A DNA stretch of 48,093 bases, from the sequence record SRR20825019_241, one strand, 5' to 3'. The notes under the pieces were generated by a model. The model ran no database searches. It worked only from the letters and a program-made list of their open reading frames with translations, and was not told where the DNA came from. Below, piece after piece: positions 4,641 to 47,530 of the stretch (within the stretch, counting starts at the first letter, position 1; each line of letters begins with the position of its first letter). The position numbers were made by a program, and so were the translations under genes.

Positions 4641-5750
4641 ATGAAACGATCAACTATAATTTGGAGTGCATTTGGACTAATGTTGATGACTGCATGCGTT
4701 CTGGAGCCCAAAAAGGATCAAGAAACGATAGCAGTTGACACAAATGAAGTGCCAACCAATTTATCTTTTGAAGAAGCTGAACGATTAGTAACCCTTCCGA
4801 TTGCATGCGTTGATATTGAGTTTCCTAACAAACTGAATCAGGTGATCGCTTCCGAGAAGGATTTACAGGAACCAAGTGAGTTACATCCCGCTTTTTACGG
4901 TTGTTTCGATTGGCACTCTGCGGTTCACGGTCATTGGTCGCTTGTGCGTTTGCTCCGTTCTCATCCTGAATTGAAAGAACGGGAGCGAATTATTTCGGGA
5001 CTCCAAAAGCACTTAACGAAGGAAAATATTACCAAAGAAATAGCGTATTTCGAGAACCCAACTAACCAAGGTTTCGAGCGAATGTACGGATGGGCATGGC
5101 TGCTTAAATTAACGGAGGAGCTAGAACTTTGGAAAGATCCTGCTGCTGCTGAACTCCGAAATAATATTCAACCATTGGCAGCGGTTATTTCTAAAGCGAT
5201 GATCAAATTTCTACCGAAACTAAATTATCCGCTGCGCGACGGAACGCATACAAATACGGCTTTCGGTCTGTCCTTGGCGTATGATTATGCGAGAACAGTC
5301 AACGACCTTGAACTGAAAACGGCCATCGAAAAGCGTGCGAAAGAATTCTATTTAACAGATGAAAATTGTCCGCAGAGTTGGGAGCCGAGTGGCTATGATT
5401 TTCTATCGCCGTGCTTTGAAGAAGCAAATTTGATGCGAAAAATTCTTTCAAAAGATAAATTCGTTCTGTGGATTAATACATTCATGCCTGAGTTATCGTC
5501 ACCAGATTTTAAACTAACTCCTGGAATCGTTTCTGATAGAAACGACGGACATTTGGTGCATTTGGATGGATTGAATTTTAGTCGTGCATGGTGCTTATTT
5601 GGAATTGCCGAAGCGCTCCCAGAAACGCATGGACATCTAGTGAAAGTAGGCAACGACCATATTAAACACTCGCTCCCATTTTTAGTAGGGGATAGCTACG
5701 AAGGTGGACATTGGCTTGCGAGTTTTGCACTCATGGCATTAACTCATTAA
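4641..5750 (+). CDS. DUF2891 family lipoprotein
   Basis: Lipobox LMTAC. Family motifs HPAFYGCFDWHSAVHGHW, FERMYGWAW, HLDGLNFSRAW and YEGGHWLASFA. Confidence 0.88.
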   Translation: MKRSTIIWSAFGLMLMTACVLEPKKDQETIAVDTNEVPTNLSFEEAERLVTLPIACVDIEFPNKLNQVIASEKDLQEPSELHPAFYGCFDWHSAVHGHWSLVRLLRSHPELKERERIISGLQKHLTKENITKEIAYFENPTNQGFERMYGWAWLLKLTEELELWKDPAAAELRNNIQPLAAVISKAMIKFLPKLNYPLRDGTHTNTAFGLSLAYDYARTVNDLELKTAIEKRAKEFYLTDENCPQSWEPSGYDFLSPCFEEANLMRKILSKDKFVLWINTFMPELSSPDFKLTPGIVSDRNDGHLVHLDGLNFSRAWCLFGIAEALPETHGHLVKVGNDHIKHSLPFLVGDSYEGGHWLASFALMALTH

Positions 5751-5761
5751 TTGGTGAAAAC

Positions 5762-5790
5762 AAAAAAACCGCCCTCGAATGAGAGCGGTT
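5762..5790 (-). terminator. Intrinsic terminator between convergent genes
   Basis: On the minus strand: AACCGCTCTC-ATTC-GAGGGCGGTT followed by a T-run. Confidence 0.75.
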
Positions 5791-5811: not shown

Positions 5812-7032
5812 TTAATTCTTTACAAAACGCGCTTGAGAAACTCCCGTAGCTGTTTGAACTTGTGCAATGTATGCTCCAGAAGGAAGGTTCGATACATCCA
5901 CAGAATTGGAATTTTGCTCAATCATGATTTTTCCATTCAAAGAAAACACTTTCACATTCTCTATTTTTTCAGCAGAAGAAATAGTTAATACATCGTTTAC
6001 TGGATTTGGATATACAGATAGGATCGCTTGCGTGTTTTCGTTAACTCCTACCGTTGAAGCATAATAGTAATTGTACGTATTATAAACATACAGCATTGAC
6101 GTTCCAAAGTCAAAATCACTATTTTCAAGTTTAGTTAGGAATCCTTGAGCATCATAAGTGAACTCTCTTTTTTCTATCAAGTCACCGCTAAACGTTCCTT
6201 CAATCGTTGAGATTTTTTGATTCGCACCGTATGTATAATCATAAATAATAAGTGCTGGAGTCTGAGGTTGTCCGCCAACTACTTCGAAACCTTCTAATTT
6301 ACTTGGTTTTCCAGCTGTATACGTGTAGTCAACGTCATACGTTTGCTCTAAAGGAGTAGATAGATCTCCTTCTAATATTTGAATATTGCTCAATTCAGTT
6401 CCTGAATAAGTAAGAATACTTTTGTTGTATGCGAACCACTGGCCAGCCGACTGATCGTAGCCGTAATTAGTTGCCTCTATAAGTTGATTGCTAGCGTTGT
6501 AAGTCAAACTGTCAGATGTCGAGTTTACAGATGATCCAGAAGAAAAGTCAAACACATTATGAACAGTCATATTTTGATTTGCATCGTATTCCAATGTTTC
6601 AGCCTGTGTTTGAATCCAATTCGTACCATCAAAATAGTATCTCTCTATTGACGTAGTGTTTCCGCTAGCATTGTATGCATAAACAGTTCGATCGTAAACC
6701 GATTCCGTTTGAGTTACCTGACCTGAAGTGATAGTATAATTGATAACTTCGGCCGGCGACAGTGGAAGTGAACTACCGTTAAAAGTACTCTCTGTTCCAC
6801 AAAGAATTAACGGAAGATCAAAGCCCCAATCGAAAACTGGGTTATCGAATTTAAAGATAGGCTCACTTGAAGTTAATGACCCACCCCATGAAGGATATTG
6901 GTATGAACTCGAATCGATATACTGAATCGCTCCGGTATTGTCATAGTAATACAATGACTTCCCAATCAATTTTTGTTGTGCCTGTGCCCCCATAGCGCTT
7001 GCGAGAACAAGCAATAGTAATGCTTTTTTCAT
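5812..7032 (-). CDS. Secreted repeat protein with T9SS type A C-terminal sorting domain
   Basis: Signal peptide, recurring YxYxxxG/N units, and C-terminal VYPNP...GAYIAQV...RFVKN. Confidence 0.8.
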   Translation of the reverse strand: MKKALLLLVLASAMGAQAQQKLIGKSLYYYDNTGAIQYIDSSSYQYPSWGGSLTSSEPIFKFDNPVFDWGFDLPLILCGTESTFNGSSLPLSPAEVINYTITSGQVTQTESVYDRTVYAYNASGNTTSIERYYFDGTNWIQTQAETLEYDANQNMTVHNVFDFSSGSSVNSTSDSLTYNASNQLIEATNYGYDQSAGQWFAYNKSILTYSGTELSNIQILEGDLSTPLEQTYDVDYTYTAGKPSKLEGFEVVGGQPQTPALIIYDYTYGANQKISTIEGTFSGDLIEKREFTYDAQGFLTKLENSDFDFGTSMLYVYNTYNYYYASTVGVNENTQAILSVYPNPVNDVLTISSAEKIENVKVFSLNGKIMIEQNSNSVDVSNLPSGAYIAQVQTATGVSQARFVKN

Positions 7033-7049
7033 ACAGTTTATAATTTTGG

Positions 7050-7057
7050 CAAATGTA
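7050..7057 (-). promoter_or_regulatory. Bacteroidota sigma70 -7 box (TACATTTG) for the T9SS repeat-protein gene
   Basis: Exact TAnnTTTG 17 nt upstream of the ATG at 7032. Confidence 0.65.
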
Positions 7058-7258
7058 TGAAACGGAATTCACTTGAAAAATTGAAAATCAGTGCTATTAA
7101 CAATTTTTCTGATCGATCTAATTTGGGAGATTGGCGATGTTGGGAGTAAAACCTCCTATTTTCGATTAATTCATCTAATTTGTCGCTGAATAATCGAATT
7201 TGATAGATAAATCAGCTCGAATATTCATTTAACTACCTGAAATAGAGTTCAATTGTCG

Positions 7259-7266
7259 TACCTTTG
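7259..7266 (+). promoter_or_regulatory. Bacteroidota -7 box (TACCTTTG) with no downstream protein gene
   Basis: Exact TAnnTTTG. The next gene downstream is on the opposite strand. Confidence 0.6.
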
Positions 7267-7269
7267 CGT

Positions 7270-7405
7270 TGGTATTTTTGCCGTATAGTATTATGCTCAC
7301 CTTTTATGGATACAGCACAAGCGAGAGAGTCGCTCCCGGTTGACCATAACTGAAGTAGCAACATTAAGAACTTCCCAACAGAACTCCTGCTGGGAAGTTC
7401 TGCGT
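7270..7405 (+). ncRNA. Candidate structured small RNA of unknown family
   Basis: Promoter box upstream. Nested complementary pairs TGCT 7294-7297/AGCA 7357-7360, TTATGG 7304-7309/CCATAA 7344-7349 and AGCGA 7320-7324/TCGCT 7330-7334. Terminator-like hairpin at 7367-7401. Confidence 0.55.
7367..7401. terminator. Probable bidirectional terminator hairpin
   Basis: 11-bp stem AGAACTTCCCA/TGGGAAGTTCT extended by CAG/CTG. It lies 10 nt beyond the helicase stop. Confidence 0.7.
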
Positions 7406-7411
7406 TTAGTC

Positions 7412-10400
7412 TCATTCATAGCGACATTCCCAACCTCTGGAGAAGAGTACACGATGTAAGGTCACGATTTCTTTAGCCTCATGAAGCGTAGAGTATATTT
7501 CTGGAAGATGAAGTACGTTGTCTTCAATCGTCGGTTGCAACCCGAAAGGGAAGCGATGATACGAGTTGGAATCGTAACTTTCAGAAAATCGAATCCATTG
7601 GCGAATAAGATTAATAGACTCGTTTTCGCTTAGTTTAAAATCTTCGGAGCGAACAGAACAGAAGAAATCGATTTGCTTTCTAGCACGCGTTAACAATACA
7701 TTCAGTCGTTTTCTGCCATTGGCTGTATTCATTGGACCAAACCGATGGTGAAATTCTCCGTCAGGATTTCTAGCATAACCAAAGCTGATCAAAAGCTGAT
7801 CACATTCATCACCCTGAACGTTCTCCAATGCTTTAAAAAACGCCTTGTTTTCCGAAATACGATCGTTCAGGTTCTCTTGAGCAAGAGGAGATAGTTGATT
7901 CCAAATGCACATTAGTTGTTCCTCAGAAAAGGCAACGATTCCAAGATCTGAACTGGAGTTCAAGCGCATTTCTATTTCACGTGCAACTTGCTTTGCTTCA
8001 ATAATATTTGTGCGGCCTTCAAAAATTCCCTCAGTGACATAATGATGCACCAAACAGTTATTGGTTTGCTGGTAATGTGGAAAAACTTGAAGGGAGTTCC
8101 CATAGAAATGTTGATTGGAGAATGCGATCAAATCAGCCTGAACACTACGATAATGGTGCTTTAAGACTACTCTCGGGAAATGATAAGACGCCTGATGAAG
8201 AAGATTTACCGTTTCGGATTCCCTAGAAACAAAATAGGAAGTTGGACCCATTTGATGCTCATCTCCTGCCACAATAGCTCGAACGGAACGCTGCAACGCG
8301 CCCAATGAATTTTGGAGTGGAATCTGACTTGCTTCGTCGAAAATAACAACGTCAAAAAGTGATTTTTCCATAGGAAAACAATCCGCTAATTGTGAAGGAT
8401 TGCTTAACCAGATTGGTTTTAACAATTGAATCCATTCACGCGCCTCGGATTGAAACAGTTGACGTAAGGAAGGGTGTTGTCGCGTTTTACTAAACTCTTT
8501 TACAAGAATCGATTTCCCCTTTTTTAAACGTGCTTTTCTTACTTTTTGAGCTGCGTTAAGTTTTTTTGAAGATGAATTTAAGAGTTCATGCGCTTCTTGA
8601 AATTTGATCAATACAGCTTGATTCAGAGAATTGGCAAACTGATCCGCTTCTTCGTCTTCGGCTAGAATGACGCGCTCAATTTTTTCCGCGAGATGCGAGG
8701 GTTGATAATTCGCTAATTGGGGAAAACGCTCCTGGAATTTTGTCTTATGCGAGTGGAGAAGAATCGAACCATACAGCTCGAATGTCTCCGCGAATTGAAA
8801 TACATTAAGGAGTGATGAATCCCATCTTTTCAAATCCGATTGTCGTTGAATCAGCGCTGGAAGTCGTTGCCCGAATAGAAGTAAATAATCAACTACGTTA
8901 TCGTCATTTTTGAAGTTAAAATAAGCTCTAAAATCGCGATAAAGGTTGTTTAAAATGGTATGCTTTTGGGTCAGTTCAGCGCGTTGATCCGAAGAAACGG
9001 AATGATACGCTTCCCAATGAGTTTCTGTAAAATGAGGAAGTGTTTGCTCTATGATCGGAAGTTGGTTTTCAGGATCTGTAATTCCTAAATCGCAAAATTT
9101 AATAAGTATTTGAGATATTTCATGCTCTAGAGACAATTCTCTCTCTCGTTCTTCCAATACGCCCGAGTTACTTTCAAAAGGAATTTGAGACAGTTGATTC
9201 CACCGTTTTTTGAGTTTTCGTCGTTTAAAATAACCTTTGGTGGCAAGCGCGGAACGAAGCGCCGTAACTTCACTCATTGAGGGAGAAATCTTCCAATGCG
9301 AATGGTTCAGCTCCTTTTTCTGAATCATCAGTTTCGCGTAACTAGATGTTAGCTTTAGAAAACGCTTCTGCTCGCGAGAATTTGGTCGAAGAAGCAAATG
9401 ATATGATCGAAATAAATCATTTTCAAACACCTGAAGCTGACTTGCGAGTCGCATGGTTTCTGAAATTTTGCCCCATGTTAACTCCTCGGAAATACCAGAA
9501 AGATTCTTAAGTTGAGTGAGCCAAAACCGAATCTTTTCATCCAATTGAACAAGTTGATCATTTTGGAAAATCGTTGGTTTGCAACGTCCTAGAAGATTGT
9601 TGAGTTGCTCGTCATAAATTTCTTGGAGAGTTGATTTCTCTTGAATGTAAGTCGAAAGTTCGGGAACATTACTCACATATTCATTCGTTGGAGCTACTTC
9701 TGAGAGTAATTTCTGATACTGTGAAAAGGAGATTCCGCCAACAAGATCATTCTGTGAAAGAAGGTCAATCGTCATCTGAAGATTGTTTTCATAATGACCA
9801 GAAATGTGTAAAGGAGCGCTATTTTCAGCTACAAGAGATTCGAAATAATCCCATGAACTTTTTAAGTCAACAAGAAATGCTTTGATATCCTTTTTGGATG
9901 TTGAAATAGAGCTCAAGCGATCTAAATTGAACAAGCCGAGCTTTTTTTGTATCACTTCTAATGCCGCGAATTTTTCGGAAACCACCAATACCGAAGAATC
10001 TTCCGAAGTACATTTTGCGACAATATTGGTGAGTACCTGAGATTTTCCTGTACCCGGAGGACCTTGAATAACCGTATTTTCGTGACTAACGGATTCAAAA
10101 ACACGAACGTGATCTGTATCCGATGGAAACAATTGAAATGGCGAAAGTGAAATCGATTCAGGTGCTTGATTTCCTTCTCCCAAAAGATGCAAAAGTGAAG
10201 AACTCAACTCCGTGGATTGGAGCAATTCTTCTAATTCCTTAATCACAGAGAAGCGATGATGGTGAAAATTACCCAGAATCAACTCCGTTTTTAAAACGGT
10301 CAGTGAAAGTTCAGTGAGAAATACTTCCCAGCGCTCTAGCTGAGGAGATTCAACCAACTCTTCGGGAATAACCACATTTAAGTCTTTCGTTAAATGCCGA

Positions 10401-10762
10401 ATCAAAAACGGATTCACAAACACTGCGTCTTCATCAACTGTGAAGGAATACACGTTTCGGATTTTGTCCAAACGATGCTCCACGGAAGACAAAATTAACG
10501 GAGTACGAACAGTTTTTGCCCCCAATTCCAACGCTACGATTCCATGAACGACGCACAACGGATTAATTCCTGATTCACGTTGCGTATTCTCAGTTTCGCG
10601 GATGAGTTTAGCTGGAATTCTCTCTTTCGGAACAGCATTTAGTTCGGTCAACTCTACTAAATTCCCCTTGTCCAAATGGGCGTTCACGAGAATGTCACTT
10701 ACATTGAAGTAAGAACTCGCCTCAAGAAGCGCAGAGATGGTATTTTTAACATCGGAAGACAC
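7412..10762 (-). CDS. DUF4011-like + SF1 (UPF1/AAA_11-AAA_12 type) helicase
   Basis: Walker A GPPGTGKSQ, Walker B FDEASQ, GDEHQMGP, HYRS, ENVQGDECD and RLNVLLTRAR. The N-terminal RESGINPLCVVHG..TPLIL resembles DUF4011. A long helical insert separates the helicase halves. Confidence 0.85.
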   Translation of the reverse strand: MSSDVKNTISALLEASSYFNVSDILVNAHLDKGNLVELTELNAVPKERIPAKLIRETENTQRESGINPLCVVHGIVALELGAKTVRTPLILSSVEHRLDKIRNVYSFTVDEDAVFVNPFLIRHLTKDLNVVIPEELVESPQLERWEVFLTELSLTVLKTELILGNFHHHRFSVIKELEELLQSTELSSSLLHLLGEGNQAPESISLSPFQLFPSDTDHVRVFESVSHENTVIQGPPGTGKSQVLTNIVAKCTSEDSSVLVVSEKFAALEVIQKKLGLFNLDRLSSISTSKKDIKAFLVDLKSSWDYFESLVAENSAPLHISGHYENNLQMTIDLLSQNDLVGGISFSQYQKLLSEVAPTNEYVSNVPELSTYIQEKSTLQEIYDEQLNNLLGRCKPTIFQNDQLVQLDEKIRFWLTQLKNLSGISEELTWGKISETMRLASQLQVFENDLFRSYHLLLRPNSREQKRFLKLTSSYAKLMIQKKELNHSHWKISPSMSEVTALRSALATKGYFKRRKLKKRWNQLSQIPFESNSGVLEERERELSLEHEISQILIKFCDLGITDPENQLPIIEQTLPHFTETHWEAYHSVSSDQRAELTQKHTILNNLYRDFRAYFNFKNDDNVVDYLLLFGQRLPALIQRQSDLKRWDSSLLNVFQFAETFELYGSILLHSHKTKFQERFPQLANYQPSHLAEKIERVILAEDEEADQFANSLNQAVLIKFQEAHELLNSSSKKLNAAQKVRKARLKKGKSILVKEFSKTRQHPSLRQLFQSEAREWIQLLKPIWLSNPSQLADCFPMEKSLFDVVIFDEASQIPLQNSLGALQRSVRAIVAGDEHQMGPTSYFVSRESETVNLLHQASYHFPRVVLKHHYRSVQADLIAFSNQHFYGNSLQVFPHYQQTNNCLVHHYVTEGIFEGRTNIIEAKQVAREIEMRLNSSSDLGIVAFSEEQLMCIWNQLSPLAQENLNDRISENKAFFKALENVQGDECDQLLISFGYARNPDGEFHHRFGPMNTANGRKRLNVLLTRARKQIDFFCSVRSEDFKLSENESINLIRQWIRFSESYDSNSYHRFPFGLQPTIEDNVLHLPEIYSTLHEAKEIVTLHRVLFSRGWECRYE

Positions 10763-13471: not shown

Positions 13472-13582
13472 TTAGGGATTACAATATTACCATAAGAATT
13501 TAGCGGATTCGTCGAAAATATTTGTGAATAGGTAAGCACTTCCGTATCTTGTACGTCTTATAGAAGAAATACTCAATAAACC

Positions 13583-20813: not shown

Positions 20814-20870
20814 GACACAAATATGCTCAGAACGTAGATTTTTATTGTCATTTTATTGTCATATCTAGCG

Positions 20871-20891
20871 TATTTAGAAGGGTTCTAAATA
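20871..20891. promoter_or_regulatory. 9-3-9 palindrome resembling the Flavobacteriales Fur box
   Basis: Perfect inverted repeat TATTTAGAA-GGG-TTCTAAATA in the hemA/RDD divergent region. Confidence 0.6.
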
Positions 20892-20975
20892 ACTTTGGAA
20901 ATCAATCATAGCAGGGATTTTGGCCGCTCTTGATTATTTCAGTTTATTGGGTATCTTTAACCGACGACAAGCACT

Positions 20976-23456: not shown

Positions 23457-23474
23457 ATGGGTAAAACTTGATAA

Positions 23475-23819
23475 ATGATCAGTAAGAAGTTAAAATGGTT
23501 CTTATTGGCTGAAACAAAGGCTGAACTCGATGCTTTTTTTGAGTACCGAAATACAGTGATTCATAAAATGATGTTCGGTGAAGTCCTATTGGTGAAAGAA
23601 AACAATAATTTTTCCGCCTTCGAGAATCAATGTCCGCATCAAGGAAAACCGTTAACAGATTGCTCAATTGCTGAGGGACACGTAGTTTGCCCTTTCCATC
23701 AATATCATTTCTCCATTGAAAATGGTCAAGGTCACGGCTTATACTTGGAAAAGTATCCAATCGAAGTACGCGAAGACGAAACTGTTTGGATTGGAAAGGA
23801 AAAATGGCAACTATTTTAA
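23475..23819 (+). CDS. Rieske [2Fe-2S] ferredoxin
   Basis: CPHQG...CPFH ligand motifs. Confidence 0.9.
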   Translation: MISKKLKWFLLAETKAELDAFFEYRNTVIHKMMFGEVLLVKENNNFSAFENQCPHQGKPLTDCSIAEGHVVCPFHQYHFSIENGQGHGLYLEKYPIEVREDETVWIGKEKWQLF

Positions 23820-23855
23820 ACACTTCTTCAAGGCTAAAACAGAAACCTCTTTATA

Positions 23856-36734: not shown

Positions 36735-37511
36735 ATGAACAAAATCCTACTAGCGCTTAGTGTGACATTAACGATGTCTGCTCAGGCACAATCTCCTTTA
36801 ACAAGAGCGAACTGTGATGTGACGCTCACGGTAAAAGGCTCTGGCGGAACCAATGGTGTTTCTGTATCATTCAACCCTGTAAGCAAAGTTTATTACACGG
36901 CATTCGCTGGAAATCAATCTTATCCGTTGGAAATTCATGATCTAAAGGGAAAATCGATTAGTACGCAAGAATGTGGTTATGACCTTCGTGGACTGTGGTA
37001 CAATCCGAAGTCAAAAATGTTGCAAGGTATTTCGTATAATAATCAAGGGACTTTTGATATGAAAATCAATGCAGATGGGACGTTGAAAGGTTCGGTTAGC
37101 AGCGATTTTTCGTACGGAATGGATGCCCAAACAGTGGGAACCTACGCAGCAAAAAAGAAATCAGTTATGTTCGTTGAAGGAAACACTGTTTCGTTCTATA
37201 AGATCGGAAAATCAACAGCTAAAACGGTCAAACTTATCCCGAGCAGTCCTAATTTGGAATTGAATACAAATGGACCAATGTACACTGGAGTGAAGAACTA
37301 CGAAATCGCATTGTTCGATGCAAATTCTGAGTCTGTATATTTGTTCAGTGTTAAAACGGGTAAACAAACGGGAAAAGTGGAGTTAAACATGGCAGCATGC
37401 GGCGATATCTACAACGTTCCAGGGAATTTCCGTGTGTCTTACGCAAATGATAGAGTATTCCTTTTTGATACAGACTCTAGAAGTTGGAAAGGTTTTTCGA
37501 TCTTCGATTGA
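36735..37511 (+). CDS. Hypothetical secreted beta-rich protein
   Basis: Signal peptide ending SAQA-Q. No recognisable catalytic motif. Confidence 0.75.
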   Translation: MNKILLALSVTLTMSAQAQSPLTRANCDVTLTVKGSGGTNGVSVSFNPVSKVYYTAFAGNQSYPLEIHDLKGKSISTQECGYDLRGLWYNPKSKMLQGISYNNQGTFDMKINADGTLKGSVSSDFSYGMDAQTVGTYAAKKKSVMFVEGNTVSFYKIGKSTAKTVKLIPSSPNLELNTNGPMYTGVKNYEIALFDANSESVYLFSVKTGKQTGKVELNMAACGDIYNVPGNFRVSYANDRVFLFDTDSRSWKGFSIFD

Positions 37512-37535
37512 TCTAGACTGTTAAAGATAGTTGAG

Positions 37536-37567
37536 CGGGTGATTGATGTATCAATCACCCGTTTTTT
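37536..37567 (+). terminator. Intrinsic terminator
   Basis: CGGGTGATTGA-TGTA-TCAATCACCCG followed by T6. Confidence 0.85.
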
Positions 37568-37774
37568 ATGCTCAATTGTTTTGCAAGGAATCTACCTGAT
37601 TTACCAAATCAAGTATTTTTACTTATCTGATTATCAGTATGTTTAGATAAATTTGTTGAGTAGCCTAACACATATTTATTCGATCTTAGCAATTGCAGAA
37701 TTTCTTGTTTTCGGTTACTTGGCGGTATCCGAAAAGCCTATGCAAATAGAGTAGGAAAGTAAAAATTGTTTAAA

Positions 37775-38338
37775 ATGGCAAAAATTGAAATTAGTATTGT
37801 TAGTTCTTTCGAGCTAGCATGGAATGACAGAGGAAGTGGAGCAACTTTGGATGGCTCATTTTATAATCCAGTATCTATTCCAATTGGATTTAATTCAATG
37901 GGCTCGTATGGTCAAGGTAATTACGATTCTCCAAATGGATCTGTTTTAGTAGTCAAGGAGATAGAAGGAGGAGCATTAGCACATCCTACGGATTATGTTC
38001 AGATTTACAATGATAAAAAATCTGGATCGGATTTGGACGGATCTTTTTGGTTACCAATTCCACCTCAAGGTTATACGGCAATGGGAATATTATGCGTGTC
38101 TGGGTATGATAAGCCAGCGGATGCCGAAGTAGTTTGCTTGCGTAATGATTTGATTGTGGTAGGTTCAGCAGGACAACTCATTTGGGATGATAAGAAATCC
38201 GGAGCAACCTTAGATGGAAGTTTTTGGGAAATAAATGTGAGTGCTGGGACTGTTCACACTGGATTGTTTTGTGGTGCTGGGAATTATAATCCCTCTGACG
38301 CTGCACCCGCAGTTGGAATTAGACACGATGTGCTATAA
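37775..38338 (+). CDS. Vps62/DUF946-related three-repeat protein
   Basis: Repeats LAWNDRGSGATLDGSFY, IYNDKKSGSDLDGSFW and IWDDKKSGATLDGSFW, plus PIPPQGYTAMG and VVCLRNDL. Confidence 0.8.
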   Translation: MAKIEISIVSSFELAWNDRGSGATLDGSFYNPVSIPIGFNSMGSYGQGNYDSPNGSVLVVKEIEGGALAHPTDYVQIYNDKKSGSDLDGSFWLPIPPQGYTAMGILCVSGYDKPADAEVVCLRNDLIVVGSAGQLIWDDKKSGATLDGSFWEINVSAGTVHTGLFCGAGNYNPSDAAPAVGIRHDVL

Positions 38339-38404
38339 TTAGACATCGTGTTTACGTTTGTATGAATGTGCTCAAGAAATAGATCTTGAGCACATTTGTT
38401 TTTC

Positions 38405-38815
38405 TTAGCGTACAATCAATCCAACGCCGAGCGCAATTACACCTAACATCAGGACTACTGCGCCAATGTGCAAGAGCCAAATCAGTTTGGTTGGCACAGT
38501 TACTTGTTTTCCAGCAGCTGCACCGAAGAATCCACCTGCAATCAAAATCGCGGAAGCGGGAATAGAGATTCGTGCAAACCATGTAAGTCCTTCACCTAAG
38601 CCAGTATATTCAGCCAAGATTTGTGCAATTAATGAAAGAATAACGAGCACACCAGCATGAGCGTGTCCAGCGCGAAACATAGATTTTTGGAAAGGTGTCA
38701 ATGGTTCTCCCTTGAATTTTCCGGTGAGAATACTCAATAAAAAATAGCCGCCGAGTTGAATTGTTGGAATGGTGATAAGAATCGTTCCACACATAAGTGT
38801 TGTAATCTCGTTCAT
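38405..38815 (-). CDS. Small 4-TM membrane protein with RAGHAHAG motif
   Basis: Four hydrophobic segments and an FRAGHAHAGVL motif. Confidence 0.8.
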   Translation of the reverse strand: MNEITTLMCGTILITIPTIQLGGYFLLSILTGKFKGEPLTPFQKSMFRAGHAHAGVLVILSLIAQILAEYTGLGEGLTWFARISIPASAILIAGGFFGAAAGKQVTVPTKLIWLLHIGAVVLMLGVIALGVGLIVR

Positions 38816-38831
38816 AAGATATATGTTTTGG

Positions 38832-41201
38832 TTAAAATGTTACGCGATACTGCATAATTGGAAGGAGTCCATTTTGATAAACAGTTCTCACAGCTCCCGC
38901 ATAAGCGTTGTATTGCTGATAGAAAATATTTTGTCTGTTGGTCACGTTCTGAATGTCAAAAGCCCATTCTTGGGTCGCTTTTCTACCGATCAGTTTGTAG
39001 GCAATTCTAAAATTCCCCTTCATGTAGTCGGTATACTGCTTGTCAAACGCGTTGTTAAGGTCACGGACTTCTTGATTGGCTAGGTTACTCTGATCAATCA
39101 ATATTTCTGAATAACGTCCGCCGCCATTCCAAGTGAATTTCACGTCTAAGCTCAACGCAGACTTAAATTTGGCATCTTCTTTATTTTTCCCAAATCTAAA
39201 TTCGTAGCCAAAAAGCGTATTTAGCGTGTGATTGCCGTTAAAAGCAGTGTTTCTCCAAACCTTGTCACTTCCTTGATATTTAGATTCAAAAAGAGATCCA
39301 GTGATTAAAAAGTAAAATCCATTGGTTAATGATTTCTCTATCGTTAACTCAATTCCGTAGTTATACCCAAGGCCGTTATTTACGAGTGTGTCAGGAGCTC
39401 CTGTCGTAAACGTCGCGCCGAAATTCAGTAGCGAATATGAACTCAATTTACTTTCTACAGGCACGTTGGTTAGGTATTGACCGTAAACTTCCGTTTTAAC
39501 GCGAATTCCATGTTTCAATCGTTTTTGGTAGCCGCCAATCACGTGGGTGCTTCTCGTGAAATCTAATTGTTTATTTGGAGTAACGAATGTTCCGTCTGTG
39601 GTTAAAACGCGTTCAAAGTAGAGTTCAATAGGAGCCATTTGACTGTGCATTCCTGTTCCGAATGTAAGCTGCTGATTCTTTTTCATTTTGTATTCTAAAC
39701 CGATTCGTGGTTCAACGGACCATTGATTTGCAAGCGTAAGAATCTGTGTATACAGTCCGCTAACGAGCGTAAAATTCTCTGTGACTCTGAAACGATGCTG
39801 AAAATGTGGTCGAATTAAGGCTGTTGTACCATCAAAATCTCTAATGGCAACGGATTTACCAAGGTCATTTCGGTAAAGTGAATCTAACAGCGAAAGAAAT
39901 AAAATATCGTTGATGATTCCCGCTTTAATGAGGTGGCGATTTGAGAGTTTATTTTGATAATTGAAAACAACCGTTCCCTTGGTGTTTGTAGCGTTACTTG
40001 TAAACGTAGTGAAGGGATTTTCACCGTTTAAATCAAGAGTGTCATTCCGAACATCGTTAAAAGCCGATTGGATTCCTCCGAGAACTTCAAAGAATGAATG
40101 ATCATTGATCCGTTGTTTATGAGAAATTCCCGCTACACCAGAGTTTGAGGCAAAAAAGATATCATTTCCAGTTACTCCCCAAATATCATTTTGATCTTCT
40201 GTGTTTTGTGATAGGATTTCAATATTACTGAGTCCGCCAATTCCAAATACTTGAGTGACTCCTTTTTTTGTTGGAAAGTGAAGTTTAAAACTGATGTCTT
40301 GGTATTTTGGAAGCGCTGCTGTACCGAATTCGATTCCGATTACTTGAAATAATTCGAGCGTAGAATAGCGGTAGTTTACTAAGAAAGAAGATTTTTTCTT
40401 TTTCGAAATTGGACCTTCTGCCATTCCTTCCAATCCATTAAACCCAAGTTGACCCATGAATTCGAATTGTTCGTTATTTCCCTTGCGCATTTTTAGATCG
40501 AAAACACCCGCCAAGGCATTTCCAAACTCGGCAGGAAAAGCACCCGTGTAAAAATCGGAGTTGCTCAAAACATTATTGTTCAGCATAGAAACAGGTCCGC
40601 CCGTGGTTCCAAATCGTGCAAAGTGATTCGGATTTGGAATGTCGAAACCATCCATTCTGTATAATACTCCCGAAGGAGAATTTCCACGAACAATAATGTC
40701 ATTTCTGGAATCGTCAGCGCCTTGAACTCCTGCAAAGTTTTGCGCCATTCGTGCTACATCATTAAAACTTCCCGCGTAACGTTGACTTTCTTCTACCGAG
40801 AATGATCTTGCACTCACCGTTGCTAGCTGATTGATTGGTTCACCGTCTTCACGAGCAACTACTTTTACTTCGTCTACGAGAAGAACTTTTTCCATGAGAG
40901 AAACCTCAAGAACGAGTTCTTTAGATGTTGTGAGCTCCAAGTTTGATAACACACCGTTTTCATATCCATAGGTTGTAACAACAAGTGTATATCGCCCAAC
41001 ACGCACATTCTCGAAACGGAAAACTCCATCCATATTCGTTTTTTGCCGAATAGAATCGGTTTCATTGAAAAGGTAAACCTTCGCATCAGGAATGGAGAGT
41101 TCCGAATATTTGTCCATTACCTTGCCGCGAATAGTTTGGGTAAGTTGACTGGTGGAATAAAATGAGCAAAAGAATAGAAAGAGAAATGTGATTGGTTTCA
41201 T
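38832..41201 (-). CDS. TonB-dependent receptor with N-terminal carboxypeptidase-regulatory-like domain
   Basis: QTIRGKVMD, plug motifs NDIIVRGNSP and IPNPNHF, GAFPAEFGNA, EPR, and a C-terminal YRVTF barrel signature. Start moved to MKPITF. Confidence 0.92.
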   Translation of the reverse strand: MKPITFLFLFFCSFYSTSQLTQTIRGKVMDKYSELSIPDAKVYLFNETDSIRQKTNMDGVFRFENVRVGRYTLVVTTYGYENGVLSNLELTTSKELVLEVSLMEKVLLVDEVKVVAREDGEPINQLATVSARSFSVEESQRYAGSFNDVARMAQNFAGVQGADDSRNDIIVRGNSPSGVLYRMDGFDIPNPNHFARFGTTGGPVSMLNNNVLSNSDFYTGAFPAEFGNALAGVFDLKMRKGNNEQFEFMGQLGFNGLEGMAEGPISKKKKSSFLVNYRYSTLELFQVIGIEFGTAALPKYQDISFKLHFPTKKGVTQVFGIGGLSNIEILSQNTEDQNDIWGVTGNDIFFASNSGVAGISHKQRINDHSFFEVLGGIQSAFNDVRNDTLDLNGENPFTTFTSNATNTKGTVVFNYQNKLSNRHLIKAGIINDILFLSLLDSLYRNDLGKSVAIRDFDGTTALIRPHFQHRFRVTENFTLVSGLYTQILTLANQWSVEPRIGLEYKMKKNQQLTFGTGMHSQMAPIELYFERVLTTDGTFVTPNKQLDFTRSTHVIGGYQKRLKHGIRVKTEVYGQYLTNVPVESKLSSYSLLNFGATFTTGAPDTLVNNGLGYNYGIELTIEKSLTNGFYFLITGSLFESKYQGSDKVWRNTAFNGNHTLNTLFGYEFRFGKNKEDAKFKSALSLDVKFTWNGGGRYSEILIDQSNLANQEVRDLNNAFDKQYTDYMKGNFRIAYKLIGRKATQEWAFDIQNVTNRQNIFYQQYNAYAGAVRTVYQNGLLPIMQYRVTF

Positions 41202-41215
41202 CAGTGTTTTTTTGA

Positions 41216-41299
41216 CAAAGATATTTTCAGAAGGAACAAAGTAAGCGAAAAAGGGCTGAGTAGCCTGAATTAGGGATGAAAAACAAACCCTAGTGACGA
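41216..41299 (-). promoter_or_regulatory. TonB-receptor promoter: -7 box plus four 20-bp-period direct repeats (putative LytTR sites)
   Basis: Minus-strand TCGTCACT (41292-41299), TCATCCCT (41272-41279), TCAGCCCT (41252-41259) and TTGTTCCT (41232-41239), then TATCTTTG (41216-41223). Confidence 0.6.
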
Positions 41300-42168
41300 C
41301 TGTCATTTACAGTGCCGTTCATCAAGCGATTAAATTCATTCACTTTGTATCGAGAGACAGGAATTTTCTCTTCTATTCCGTTTAATTTTAATGCATATCC
41401 TTGGGCATTTCCATTTACGGATTCAATTTTTGAGAGGTTTACAATGTAGCTTCGGTGCGTTTTCATAATTGAAAAAGAGGATTCAGCCAACTGTTCTTCC
41501 AGTTTCGATAACGTAATTCGTTGAAGCTCTTTTTTGGATTCACCCAACTGAAAAAGATAGAACTCAACATAGTTCCCAGAAGCTTTGGCAAAACGAAAAG
41601 ATTCTGACGTAAATGCAATGGATTGATCTTGCCCTTCACCTTCAATAACAATGGTATTGTCAGAAACCTCATAGTTCTTAGTTACGAGCGAAGCACTTTT
41701 ATCGAGATGGTACATTCTTAGTTTGGACTCGAAATGAAACGTAATAAAGACAAACGGAAAGAGTCCAACAGCATGTGTAAAAAGCACACTTTTAGTAAAA
41801 AATACGGGAATAGTTTCTTTTTCGATAAACTCAGGGTAATGGACAAACAATCCAAAAAAGTGATTTAGGACACCAATCACAGTAATAAGGACAAATGCCA
41901 CTAGAATGGACATTCCCACGGTAACGTTTAGATTTCTTTTCGCAGCATAACCGTTCCAAGCGAAAGTATAAATCAAAGAAAGTATCAAAGTGATTATTGT
42001 ATACCCTGTCGCAACGAATAATTTCGACATTTGGATTTCGTCGAGGATGCCAAAAGGTTGAAAGATAAGGAGAAAGAAAAAGACGAAACCCGCAATGCTA
42101 AAGGCGAGAAGAAACTTCGCGCGATTAGTGTCTAATATTGGACAGGGTCTTTTTAAGTATTCCAACAT
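41290..42168 (-). CDS. Membrane-anchored LytTR transcriptional regulator
   Basis: Four N-terminal TM helices. C-terminal ASGNYVEF, KTHRSYIVNL and IPVSR. No receiver domain. Confidence 0.9.
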   Translation of the reverse strand: MLEYLKRPCPILDTNRAKFLLAFSIAGFVFFFLLIFQPFGILDEIQMSKLFVATGYTIITLILSLIYTFAWNGYAAKRNLNVTVGMSILVAFVLITVIGVLNHFFGLFVHYPEFIEKETIPVFFTKSVLFTHAVGLFPFVFITFHFESKLRMYHLDKSASLVTKNYEVSDNTIVIEGEGQDQSIAFTSESFRFAKASGNYVEFYLFQLGESKKELQRITLSKLEEQLAESSFSIMKTHRSYIVNLSKIESVNGNAQGYALKLNGIEEKIPVSRYKVNEFNRLMNGTVNDSRH

Positions 42169-44617: not shown

Positions 44618-44635
44618 GCAATAAATACCATAAAG

Positions 44636-44672
44636 TAGTGAGTGTTAAATCCGTTAGCATACACTATTTTTG
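44636..44672 (+). terminator. Weak hairpin + T-tract after lysC, overlapping the feoA -7 box
   Basis: TAGTG-A-GTGTTAA-atccg-TTAGCAT-A-CACTA then TTTTT. TATTTTTG box at 44665-44672. Confidence 0.4.
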
Positions 44673-44678
44673 TAGCGA

Positions 44679-44918
44679 ATGAAAACAATACTCACGAATA
44701 TAGAAAATGGATCATCTGTGATTGTCCAGGGGATTTTGCAATCTGACCTACGCGTGAAGTTAATGGAAATGGGAATCACCGAAGGGAGATTTCTAAAAGT
44801 ATTGTTTCGAGCGCCATTTGGTGATCCAATCGCTGTAAATGTTGATGGCTACGTGCTTTCACTTCGAAGAGATGAAGCTGAACTAATTCAAGTTGAACGT
44901 CAAGAAGTATATGCATGA
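44679..44918 (+). CDS. feoA: Ferrous iron transport protein A
   Basis: KLMEMGI..G, APFGDPI and LSLRRDEA. Confidence 0.95.
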   Translation: MKTILTNIENGSSVIVQGILQSDLRVKLMEMGITEGRFLKVLFRAPFGDPIAVNVDGYVLSLRRDEAELIQVERQEVYA

Positions 44919-46867: not shown

Positions 46868-46868
46868 G

Positions 46869-47006
46869 ATGACACAGACAGTTCTTGTAATCGTATTTAT
46901 TTCAGCAGCAATTATTTTTCTTGGAATTCGTGCGTATGGGAAGTTCTTTTCCAAAAAAGGAGCATGCGACGGTTGTGCAGTGAGCAAAATGCAAGAATGG
47001 AAATAG
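46869..47006 (+). CDS. FeoB-associated Cys-rich small membrane protein (45 aa, below ORF-track cutoff)
   Basis: MTQTVLVIVFISAAIIFLGIRAYGKFFSKKGACDGCAVSKMQEWK*: one TM helix plus CxxC, starting 1 nt after the feoB stop. Confidence 0.75.
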   Translation: MTQTVLVIVFISAAIIFLGIRAYGKFFSKKGACDGCAVSKMQEWK

Positions 47007-47041
47007 CCAGCTGTTCGCTGAGGACGTTACGATTTTATTTC

Positions 47042-47326
47042 TTAGGCAGAGGTTGGACTTACCTGAATTTGGCCGCCAATTGCTTTCAAAACTTTCATTA
47101 TTGTCGGAAATTGAGGCTTTGATCCGTCAGATAATGCTTTGTACAGACTAGGTCTACTTAACCCTGTTTCTTCAGATATTTTGGTCATTCCAATCGCTTT
47201 TGCAATATGTCCAATTGCATTTTTGACATCTGTATTGTTCCCTTCTTCCGAAACAGTGTTGAGATACTCGGCAATCATTTCTTTATTGTCTAGGTAATCC
47301 GCGATGTCAAATTTTGAAGTTCCCAT
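47042..47326 (-). CDS. Addiction-module antidote protein (HTH antitoxin, HI1420-like)
   Basis: FDIADYLD..EMIAEYL, IAKAIGMTKISEETGLSRPSLYKALS and PQF.TIMKV. Confidence 0.9.
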   Translation of the reverse strand: MGTSKFDIADYLDNKEMIAEYLNTVSEEGNNTDVKNAIGHIAKAIGMTKISEETGLSRPSLYKALSDGSKPQFPTIMKVLKAIGGQIQVSPTSA

Positions 47327-47331
47327 GCGCT

Positions 47332-47520
47332 CTATTTGTTTAATTTTTTCCAGATTTCTTTTGCTTTCAGAATGTCGCTTTCTTGTGACGGCTTATCTCC
47401 AACGATCAGTAGGACGATTATTTTTCCGTACTTTTCTTTAAAGTAAACACGATAACCTTTCGCAAAATTTATGCGTATTTCGCTTATTCCCTCCCCGACA
47501 GGTTATCATTCTCCAAAATG
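47332..47520 (-). pseudogene. RelE/ParE-type addiction-module killer toxin remnant (HI1419-like)
   Basis: Minus-strand translation HFGE**PVGEGISEIRINFAKGYRVYFKEKYGKIIVLLIVGDKPSQESDILKAKEIWKKLNK*. Two adjacent in-frame stops at 47503-47508 and no N-terminal third. Confidence 0.85.
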
Positions 47521-47530
47521 CTACTCGCAA

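Follow-up and report, generated by a model that had tools for sequence, protein, structure and literature searches.

The DNA analyzed here is a stretch of 48,093 nucleotides from sequence record SRR20825019_241, referred to as the window, and derives from a Crocinitomicaceae-like member of the Flavobacteriales. Its PLP-dependent enzyme has top matches with at most 87% identity, which belong to metagenome-assembled genomes labelled Taishania, Fluviicola or Crocinitomicaceae. Contigs of four sequencing runs are identical to the window without variation, and none of the public runs containing the sequence is on record as RNA. Spacers between the genes of the window are mostly short; among the 16 with at least 40 nt, the 379-nt spacer at positions 7033-7411, which contains the element described here, ranks third in length. 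Both flanking genes are on the minus strand. The first, which encodes a T9SS sorting tail protein (5812-7032), is accompanied by a -7 box of its own on the minus strand at 7050-7057. The second encodes a DUF4011-type SF1 helicase of 1116 amino acids (7412-10762) and is convergent with the element. A DUF2891 gene on the plus strand (4641-5750) with a hairpin of its own at about 5768-5790 is located on the other side of the T9SS-tail gene. The helicase matches the anti-phage helicase models ProA, Hhe, and PDC-S37 far under their cut-offs (e.g. 368 bits vs 1500) and is shorter than these proteins; in 16 of 80 loci, its gene is found beside that for the PLP enzyme. Several other features are present in the spacer. 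A further plus-strand TAnnTTTG box at 7041-7048 is arranged back to back with the box of the T9SS-tail gene, and at 7141-7158 there is a hairpin of terminator-like appearance with a T-run. Two copies of the motif TTGGGAG (7123-7129 and 7139-7145) are complementary to the left arm of the hairpin at 7367-7401.

A preliminary description of this DNA had proposed a stand-alone structured non-coding RNA next to the helicase gene, with its own promoter and terminator. All of the structural parts named there are found in the minimum free energy or centroid folds of the plus strand at the positions where they had been placed, namely the stems TGCT/AGCA (7294-7297 with 7357-7360), TTATGG/CCATAA (7304-7309 with 7344-7349), and CAGC/GTTG with one G-U pair (7313-7316 with 7339-7342), as well as the apical hairpin AGCGA-GAGAG-TCGCT (7320-7334). 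Nested stems and apical hairpin form a bulged 5' stem-loop (7294-7360), the outer stems of which are not significant (see below). It is followed by a strong hairpin at 7367-7401, a putative terminator, probably for both strands, which occupies the same alignment columns as a hairpin in a related genome. This hairpin consists of two 15-nt arms with 93% complementarity and a 5-nt loop. On the plus strand, 11 + 3 pairs flank an A.C mismatch; on the minus strand the mismatch turns into G.U, resulting in an unbroken stem of 15 pairs. The stem is GC-rich as expected for a terminator, no U-run follows it on either strand, and a consensus terminator scan made no call at 7367-7401 on either strand. Thus, of the terminator claimed for the RNA, the hairpin itself is present, but it is shared at best, as its distance to the helicase stop is 10 nt and, in this window, the fold on the helicase strand is the better one. 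The higher GC content relative to the flanking intergenic DNA, also part of the preliminary description, is borne out, with 0.44-0.47 at 7250-7399 and 0.29-0.34 at 7000-7299.

The whole 139-nt stretch folds with z-scores of -3.93 on the plus strand and -4.06 on the minus strand, and none of 200 shuffles was as stable on either strand. Among 9596 segments of 120 nt from the window, the locus ranks third on the minus strand (-46.5) and about 20th on the plus strand (-40.3), with a background mean of -21.2 (sd 5.0). Most of this signal is contributed by the terminator hairpin. The first hairpin (73 nt) alone reaches -19.2 on the plus and -20.9 on the minus strand, which is only about 2 sd below the 75-nt background (mean -11.4, sd 3.8). 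Both hairpins are slightly more stable on the minus strand in the window. For the outer helix of the first hairpin, shuffling of the flanks gave p values of 0.18 (plus) and 0.08 (minus) in the window, so that the pairing of the TTATGG/CCATAA and TGCT/AGCA stems on the plus strand is not beyond chance; the corresponding values for the homolog in genome G118 are 0.03 (plus) and 0.32 (minus).

Two candidate promoter boxes precede the stem-loop. A sigma-A type -7 box, TACCTTTG, matches the TAnnTTTG consensus at 7259-7266 on the plus strand, and a second one, TATTTTTG, which is absent from the preliminary description, is found at 7273-7280. In Flavobacterium psychrophilum, the TAnnTTTG box is reported to span positions -12 to -5 (PMC9723704), so transcription would start near 7271 or near 7285, respectively. 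In the window as a whole, TAnnTTTG shows no enrichment (54 occurrences vs 49 expected); in intergenic DNA it occurs 10 times vs 3.6 expected, a number reached by 0.2% of shuffles. For the interval 7245-7292, one or more plus-strand boxes are expected by chance with a probability of 0.028, and two or more with a probability of 0.0002. From boxes and terminator, a plus-strand transcript within 7271-7405 is predicted, with a length of about 121-135 nt depending on the box used. The promoter claimed for the RNA thus amounts to consensus boxes, and these are not kept in G118, where the corresponding 204-nt spacer contains no exact TAnnTTTG box.

The homolog in G118 was found with a covariance model for which the window sequence was the only input. 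In a search of 151 genomes, this model had a sole full-length match, G118:C10:300721-300837, with 34.9 bits and an E value of 3.1e-5 per genome. Its second match, in genome G344 (E 0.043), was dropped as it covered the terminator part only. G118 is the closest of 15 genomes tested, with 77% identity for FeoB vs 62-72%; HemA identity is 72% in G118 and 56-68% in four other genomes tested. Of the 34 window ORFs, 27 keep their order along about 60 kb of the G118 contig. At the locus itself the order in G118 is GT2, DUF2891 (plus), element (plus), helicase (minus), and PLP enzyme (plus), and the encoded proteins share 71% (GT2), 67% (DUF2891), 45% (helicase), and 80% (PLP enzyme) identity with their counterparts in the window. 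The element is located between the DUF2891 gene and the convergent helicase gene, with the same place and orientation relative to the helicase as in the window. The G118 spacer is only 204 nt long because the T9SS-tail gene, which stands between element and DUF2891 in the window, is missing there. In this genome set BLAST had missed the homolog, which a single-sequence covariance model combined with a synteny check was able to recover.

Conservation between the two copies is concentrated in a core of 38 nt at 7308-7345 (plus strand). In the alignment to the syntenic copy, the whole block of 112 columns is gapless with 59 identical positions, and the core accounts for 30 identities in 38 nt. 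Within it lie the 5-bp apical stem, which is invariant, a loop that varies, and conserved bases of the internal loop; the apical half-sites AGCGA and TCGCT are unchanged, and four of the five bases between them differ. Four-fold degenerate sites of ten flanking orthologs are identical at 416 of 1254 positions (33%), showing that neutral sites are saturated. With 79% identity against this neutral level, the core is under selection and functional at the nucleotide level. The binomial probability of 30 identities in 38 positions at p = 0.33 is about 1e-8 per placement and <1e-3 over all ungapped placements of the two spacers, and only five of the 16 window spacers with at least 40 nt resemble G118 at E<1e-3. 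As judged from this sequence comparison, the 38-nt core is under purifying selection, and a real, selected element is present.

This element is not catalogued. In a search of Rfam 15 no family was matched by positions 7262-7500 either at gathering score or at E<=10, in line with the preliminary description, which had considered an uncatalogued RNA possible. With positions 7000-7500, four weak snoRNA or FsrA matches were obtained at E<=10, all of them upstream of 7262, and the G118 copy gave only weak matches to miRNA hairpins, located on the terminator. A functional element that is conserved at the nucleotide level and lies outside the catalogued families is therefore supported by both the selected core and the Rfam result. 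Two exclusions made on reading the sequence also held up. ARAGORN reported no tRNA or tmRNA gene in 6900-7600. A cis-acting 5' riboswitch is excluded as no plus-strand gene follows in the window or in G118; in both, the minus-strand helicase gene comes next. Three other candidates were set aside: a type I toxin-antitoxin pair (on reading the G118 sequence, the opposite frame lacks a start over the first 22 codons past the helicase stop, its coding score is not significant, and no homolog was found), a kink-turn in the internal loop (by eye, the required G.A pair is missing), and a chromosome-dimer resolution site (by eye, with no switch of gene orientation here).

The arrangement in G118 suggests an explanation that does not require an independent RNA gene. 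The element could be a 3'-end module, consisting of the 3'-UTR and the terminator region that the DUF2891 and helicase genes share as a convergent pair, and the copy in the window would then be a leftover, stranded by the insertion of the T9SS-tail gene and serving only as terminator of the helicase gene. In G118, the element begins about 90 nt past the DUF2891 stop on the same strand, and neither an exact -7 box nor, according to the scan, another terminator-like site lies in between. The G118 hairpin is preceded by an A-run and followed by TTTTT, and fails the terminator scan with its long loop. Furthermore, window and G118 both have the terminator directly next to the helicase stop, and in the window it pairs better on the helicase strand. 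However, the core is still 79% identical even though the copy in the window has lost its position downstream of DUF2891, a terminator would not need the conserved internal-loop sequence, and two -7 boxes precede the window copy. In relatives, 10 of the 21 DUF2891 loci with a convergent helicase have spacers of only about 3-63 nt, indicating that the gene pair does without such a module. For these reasons the 3'-end module is regarded as unlikely, and a lineage-restricted plus-strand small RNA that stands alone in this window remains the tentatively favored reading.

Whether the plus strand is the relevant one can be judged from the consensus structure. In the ungapped alignment of the two sequences, the consensus fold of the plus strand has an energy of -25.2 kcal/mol (z -7.0; none of 500 column shuffles as low), and that of the minus strand -17.1 kcal/mol (z -3.7). 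The 21 consensus pairs are formed in all 42 of 42 cells. Four pairs change on both sides, three of them in the terminator stem, and three more have a one-sided change that yields G.U in each case, a pairing available to the plus strand only. The terminator stem uses the same ten column pairs in both genomes, with three compensatory double changes and, in addition, two changes from C-G to U.G. Controls with slid sequences were 31-48% paired and contained no double changes; 29 of the 500 shuffles made as a pair-count control reached the observed values, which have to be read in view of a tested structure derived from the same two sequences. With two sequences the covariation is thin: none is seen inside the core, and the 5-bp apical stem is uninformative on pairing because it is invariant. 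In addition, convergent genes would be expected to have a compensated terminator between them whether or not a small RNA is present. In total, four double and three wobble changes preserve the pairing, as seen in two sequences. The core hairpin precedes the terminator only on the plus strand, so that the order of the parts is sensible as a transcript only on this strand. On the basis of the two aligned sequences, consensus fold, wobble pairs, and hairpin-then-terminator layout favor the plus strand.

A minus-strand element, i.e. a structured 3'-UTR of the helicase mRNA, would be in line with the position of the element beside the helicase stop in both genomes and with the slightly more stable minus-strand fold in the window (-46.5 vs -40.3). 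This stability is not shared by G118, the minus strand of which folds poorly (-30.7, z -1.6, with 12 of 200 shuffles as good), while its plus strand reaches -39.6 (z -3.7). The minus-strand consensus fold is the weaker one, all three one-sided changes turn into A.C or C.A on this strand, and the core comes after the strong hairpin and would therefore mostly not be transcribed. A helicase 3'-UTR is accordingly considered improbable.

Selection at the nucleotide level could also act on the DNA itself. The inverted repeat AGCGA-N5-TCGCT with its flanks could be the binding site of a protein, as might be expected from two invariant half-sites around a spacer in which four of five bases differ, from the lack of covariation inside the core, and from its single occurrence in the G118 genome. 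The conserved flanks are asymmetric, though, no promoter is nearby except the candidate's own, and the fixed, gapless distance to the compensated hairpin suggests that core and hairpin belong to one transcript. We therefore see little chance for a DNA-level site.

As an alternative to an RNA, a peptide of 15-16 codons (ATG at 7293 or 7306, plus strand) had been mentioned in the preliminary description, and the minus strand contains an ORF of 60 codons (7233-7415). The ATG of the latter overlaps the TGA of the helicase gene (ATGA) in a classic coupling arrangement, both genomes keep its frame open over the aligned block, with a hydrophobic middle part, and one plus-strand frame has a z-score of 2.2. 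Yet no frame survives correction for six frames in a column-shuffle analysis (best uncorrected value 0.018; minus frame 0.11), and the ends of the ORFs differ, the plus-strand ORFs of the window stopping where G118 reads on. On reading the G118 sequence, the minus frame continues in phase from the TAA of the helicase gene, and its first 22 codons include no start. In the frame of ATG 7293, a comparison by hand showed that five of six conserved residues have identical codons despite saturated synonymous sites. The 60-aa product has no Pfam family, and a search among proteins of 33-105 aa gave none with three 5-residue words in common. A small protein gene on either strand is thus very unlikely, and the 15-16 codon peptide in particular found no support. 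What probability the readings discussed here leave over falls to an element with no function beyond termination.

The selected element appears to be restricted to a narrow lineage. With blastn and nhmmer, the 156-nt region gave nothing below E 1.8 in 80 syntenic PLP loci; BLAST against 401 genomes of the family returned only two matches of 20-22 nt, which is chance level, and there was no match in five named relatives. The homology search by blastn and nhmmer, which the preliminary description had put forward, thus yielded nothing beyond chance in the sets searched. Among metagenome contigs reached via the helicase C-terminus, two loci with 58-61% identity were found, neither with similar downstream sequence. 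A second model, R2, built from the window and G118 sequences, detected no further member in 82 loci, in 150 relatives of G118 (with one copy in G118 itself), in 39 relatives searched with laxer filters, or in 150 other genomes of the order. With the filters off, it found none in 24 of 30 DUF2891 loci (best E 7.2), the loci left out being L100 (from genome G003), L107 (G118 itself), and L123-L126. The core pattern with up to three mismatches occurs in one of 401 family genomes, G118 itself, and has no match in viral contigs; plasmid and phage collections contain no match either, and no comparable hairpins are present downstream of helicase orthologs in 12 loci. Since the genome sets are samples, these results mean that further copies were not found in the sets searched, rather than that they are absent.

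The preliminary description had also mentioned similar sequences in Flavobacteriaceae carrying TTACGG/CCGTAA at the central stem as a compensatory change. No such copies were detected by the model in 150 other sampled genomes of the order, and the core pattern was not found in the 400 other sampled genomes of the family. The sole homolog has a different outer stem of the first hairpin, which is register-shifted relative to the window. Such Flavobacteriaceae copies thus found no support in the genomes searched. The junction between DUF2891 and helicase genes is itself variable in relatives (L097-L126), where spacer lengths range between about 3 nt and about 1300 nt, with unrelated ORFs of about 95-350 codons, several of which are on the helicase strand directly after the helicase gene.

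Taken over all readings, the element is probably a lineage-restricted plus-strand small RNA or a 3'-end RNA element, as far as sequence comparison can tell. The single reading that we prefer, tentatively and with somewhat less than half of our confidence, is a lineage-restricted small RNA from the plus strand that is stand-alone in this window. Such an RNA would have a length of about 120-135 nt and would consist of a short 5' leader, the bulged stem-loop with the core at 7308-7345, a linker of about 20 nt, and the hairpin at 7367-7401, which would end the plus-strand transcript and probably also the convergent helicase mRNA. In the window the DUF2891 gene has its own hairpin and is separated from the element by a 1.2-kb gene on the opposite strand, so read-through from DUF2891 cannot supply the RNA. 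Cut off from same-strand genes in this way, the element would need its own sigma-A promoter, for which the boxes at 7259 and 7273 are the candidates. As the conserved bases are mostly in the apical stem and the internal loops, the hairpin would be recognized as a shape, by a protein or by the loop of another RNA, rather than through a long linear seed. Transcription, start site, and action in trans are all inferred. Of the stand-alone non-coding RNA as first proposed, the selected and uncatalogued element and the preference for the plus strand have stood, but the promoter box is not kept in G118 and the terminator is shared at best.

A more specific role, in which the RNA is a dedicated partner of the DUF4011-type helicase and the conserved hairpin its RNA ligand or regulator, would explain why the element stayed beside the helicase gene after a gene was inserted on the DUF2891 side. 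The sole support for this partnership is adjacency in two genomes, and we regard it as highly improbable.

Several known systems resemble the element in part. Like bidirectional intrinsic terminators, it has a GC-rich hairpin with compensated stem changes between converging genes; however, the window copy has no U-run on either strand, and the conserved 38-nt core about 20 nt upstream would be left unexplained by a terminator. Small RNAs derived from 3'-UTRs are known in enterobacteria. The G118 element is likewise in the position of the DUF2891 3'-UTR and shares the only terminator of this gene, whereas the window element has been detached from DUF2891 by the inserted opposite-strand gene. 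In the Flavobacteriales, a report on F. psychrophilum (PMC9723704) describes "Indep" small RNAs such as Rfp18, which are intergenic like the element. As described there, the Rfp small RNAs also share a TAnnTTTG box, strong predicted folding, and conservation limited to close relatives. The likeness is one of description: the conserved part of the element is a hairpin core, not a demonstrated pairing loop, and the element is a predicted transcript that matches no Rfam family by sequence or model. The small RNAs detected by dRNA-seq in Bacteroides thetaiotaomicron (PMC7366714) have the same phylum-wide promoter type and represent the same general kind of gene; they have mapped transcript ends, in contrast to the element, which is known from sequence, and no homology between them was found. 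A literature search on small RNAs in Fluviicola, one named genus of the family, gave no paper on such RNAs. If transcribed, the element would represent a new, uncatalogued family of small RNAs in the Crocinitomicaceae, an abundant aquatic family of the Flavobacteriales. Its distribution is narrow, with two genomes known to carry it, and as a kind of gene it would be ordinary.

Other intergenic regions of the window have features of their own. Among all 120-nt segments of the window, the lowest folding energy (-47 kcal/mol) belongs to 38291-38430, where a perfect 13-bp hairpin (38365-38396) between the convergent genes 37766-38338 (plus) and 38405-38815 (minus) is probably a bidirectional terminator. 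Slightly upstream, a DUF805b RNA (RF02914) was identified at 37719-37757 (plus strand) with 41.8 bits, the sole Rfam match in the window above the gathering score. Upstream of it are a TAnnTTTG box (37648-37655) and a hairpin (37536-37561). For the surrounding gene block (36735-42168), no match was seen in the 80 kb of G118 used for comparison. The second longest spacer of the window (23457-23855, 399 nt) shows no similarity to the syntenic G118 region. Four other spacers are conserved in G118, at 13472-13582 (74 nt at 85%), 20814-20975 (80 nt at 80%), 44618-44914 (284 nt at 72%, a block upstream of feoB), and 46868-47530 (122 nt at 62%); these may represent 5'-UTRs, promoters, or small genes under the ORF cut-off of 120 codons.
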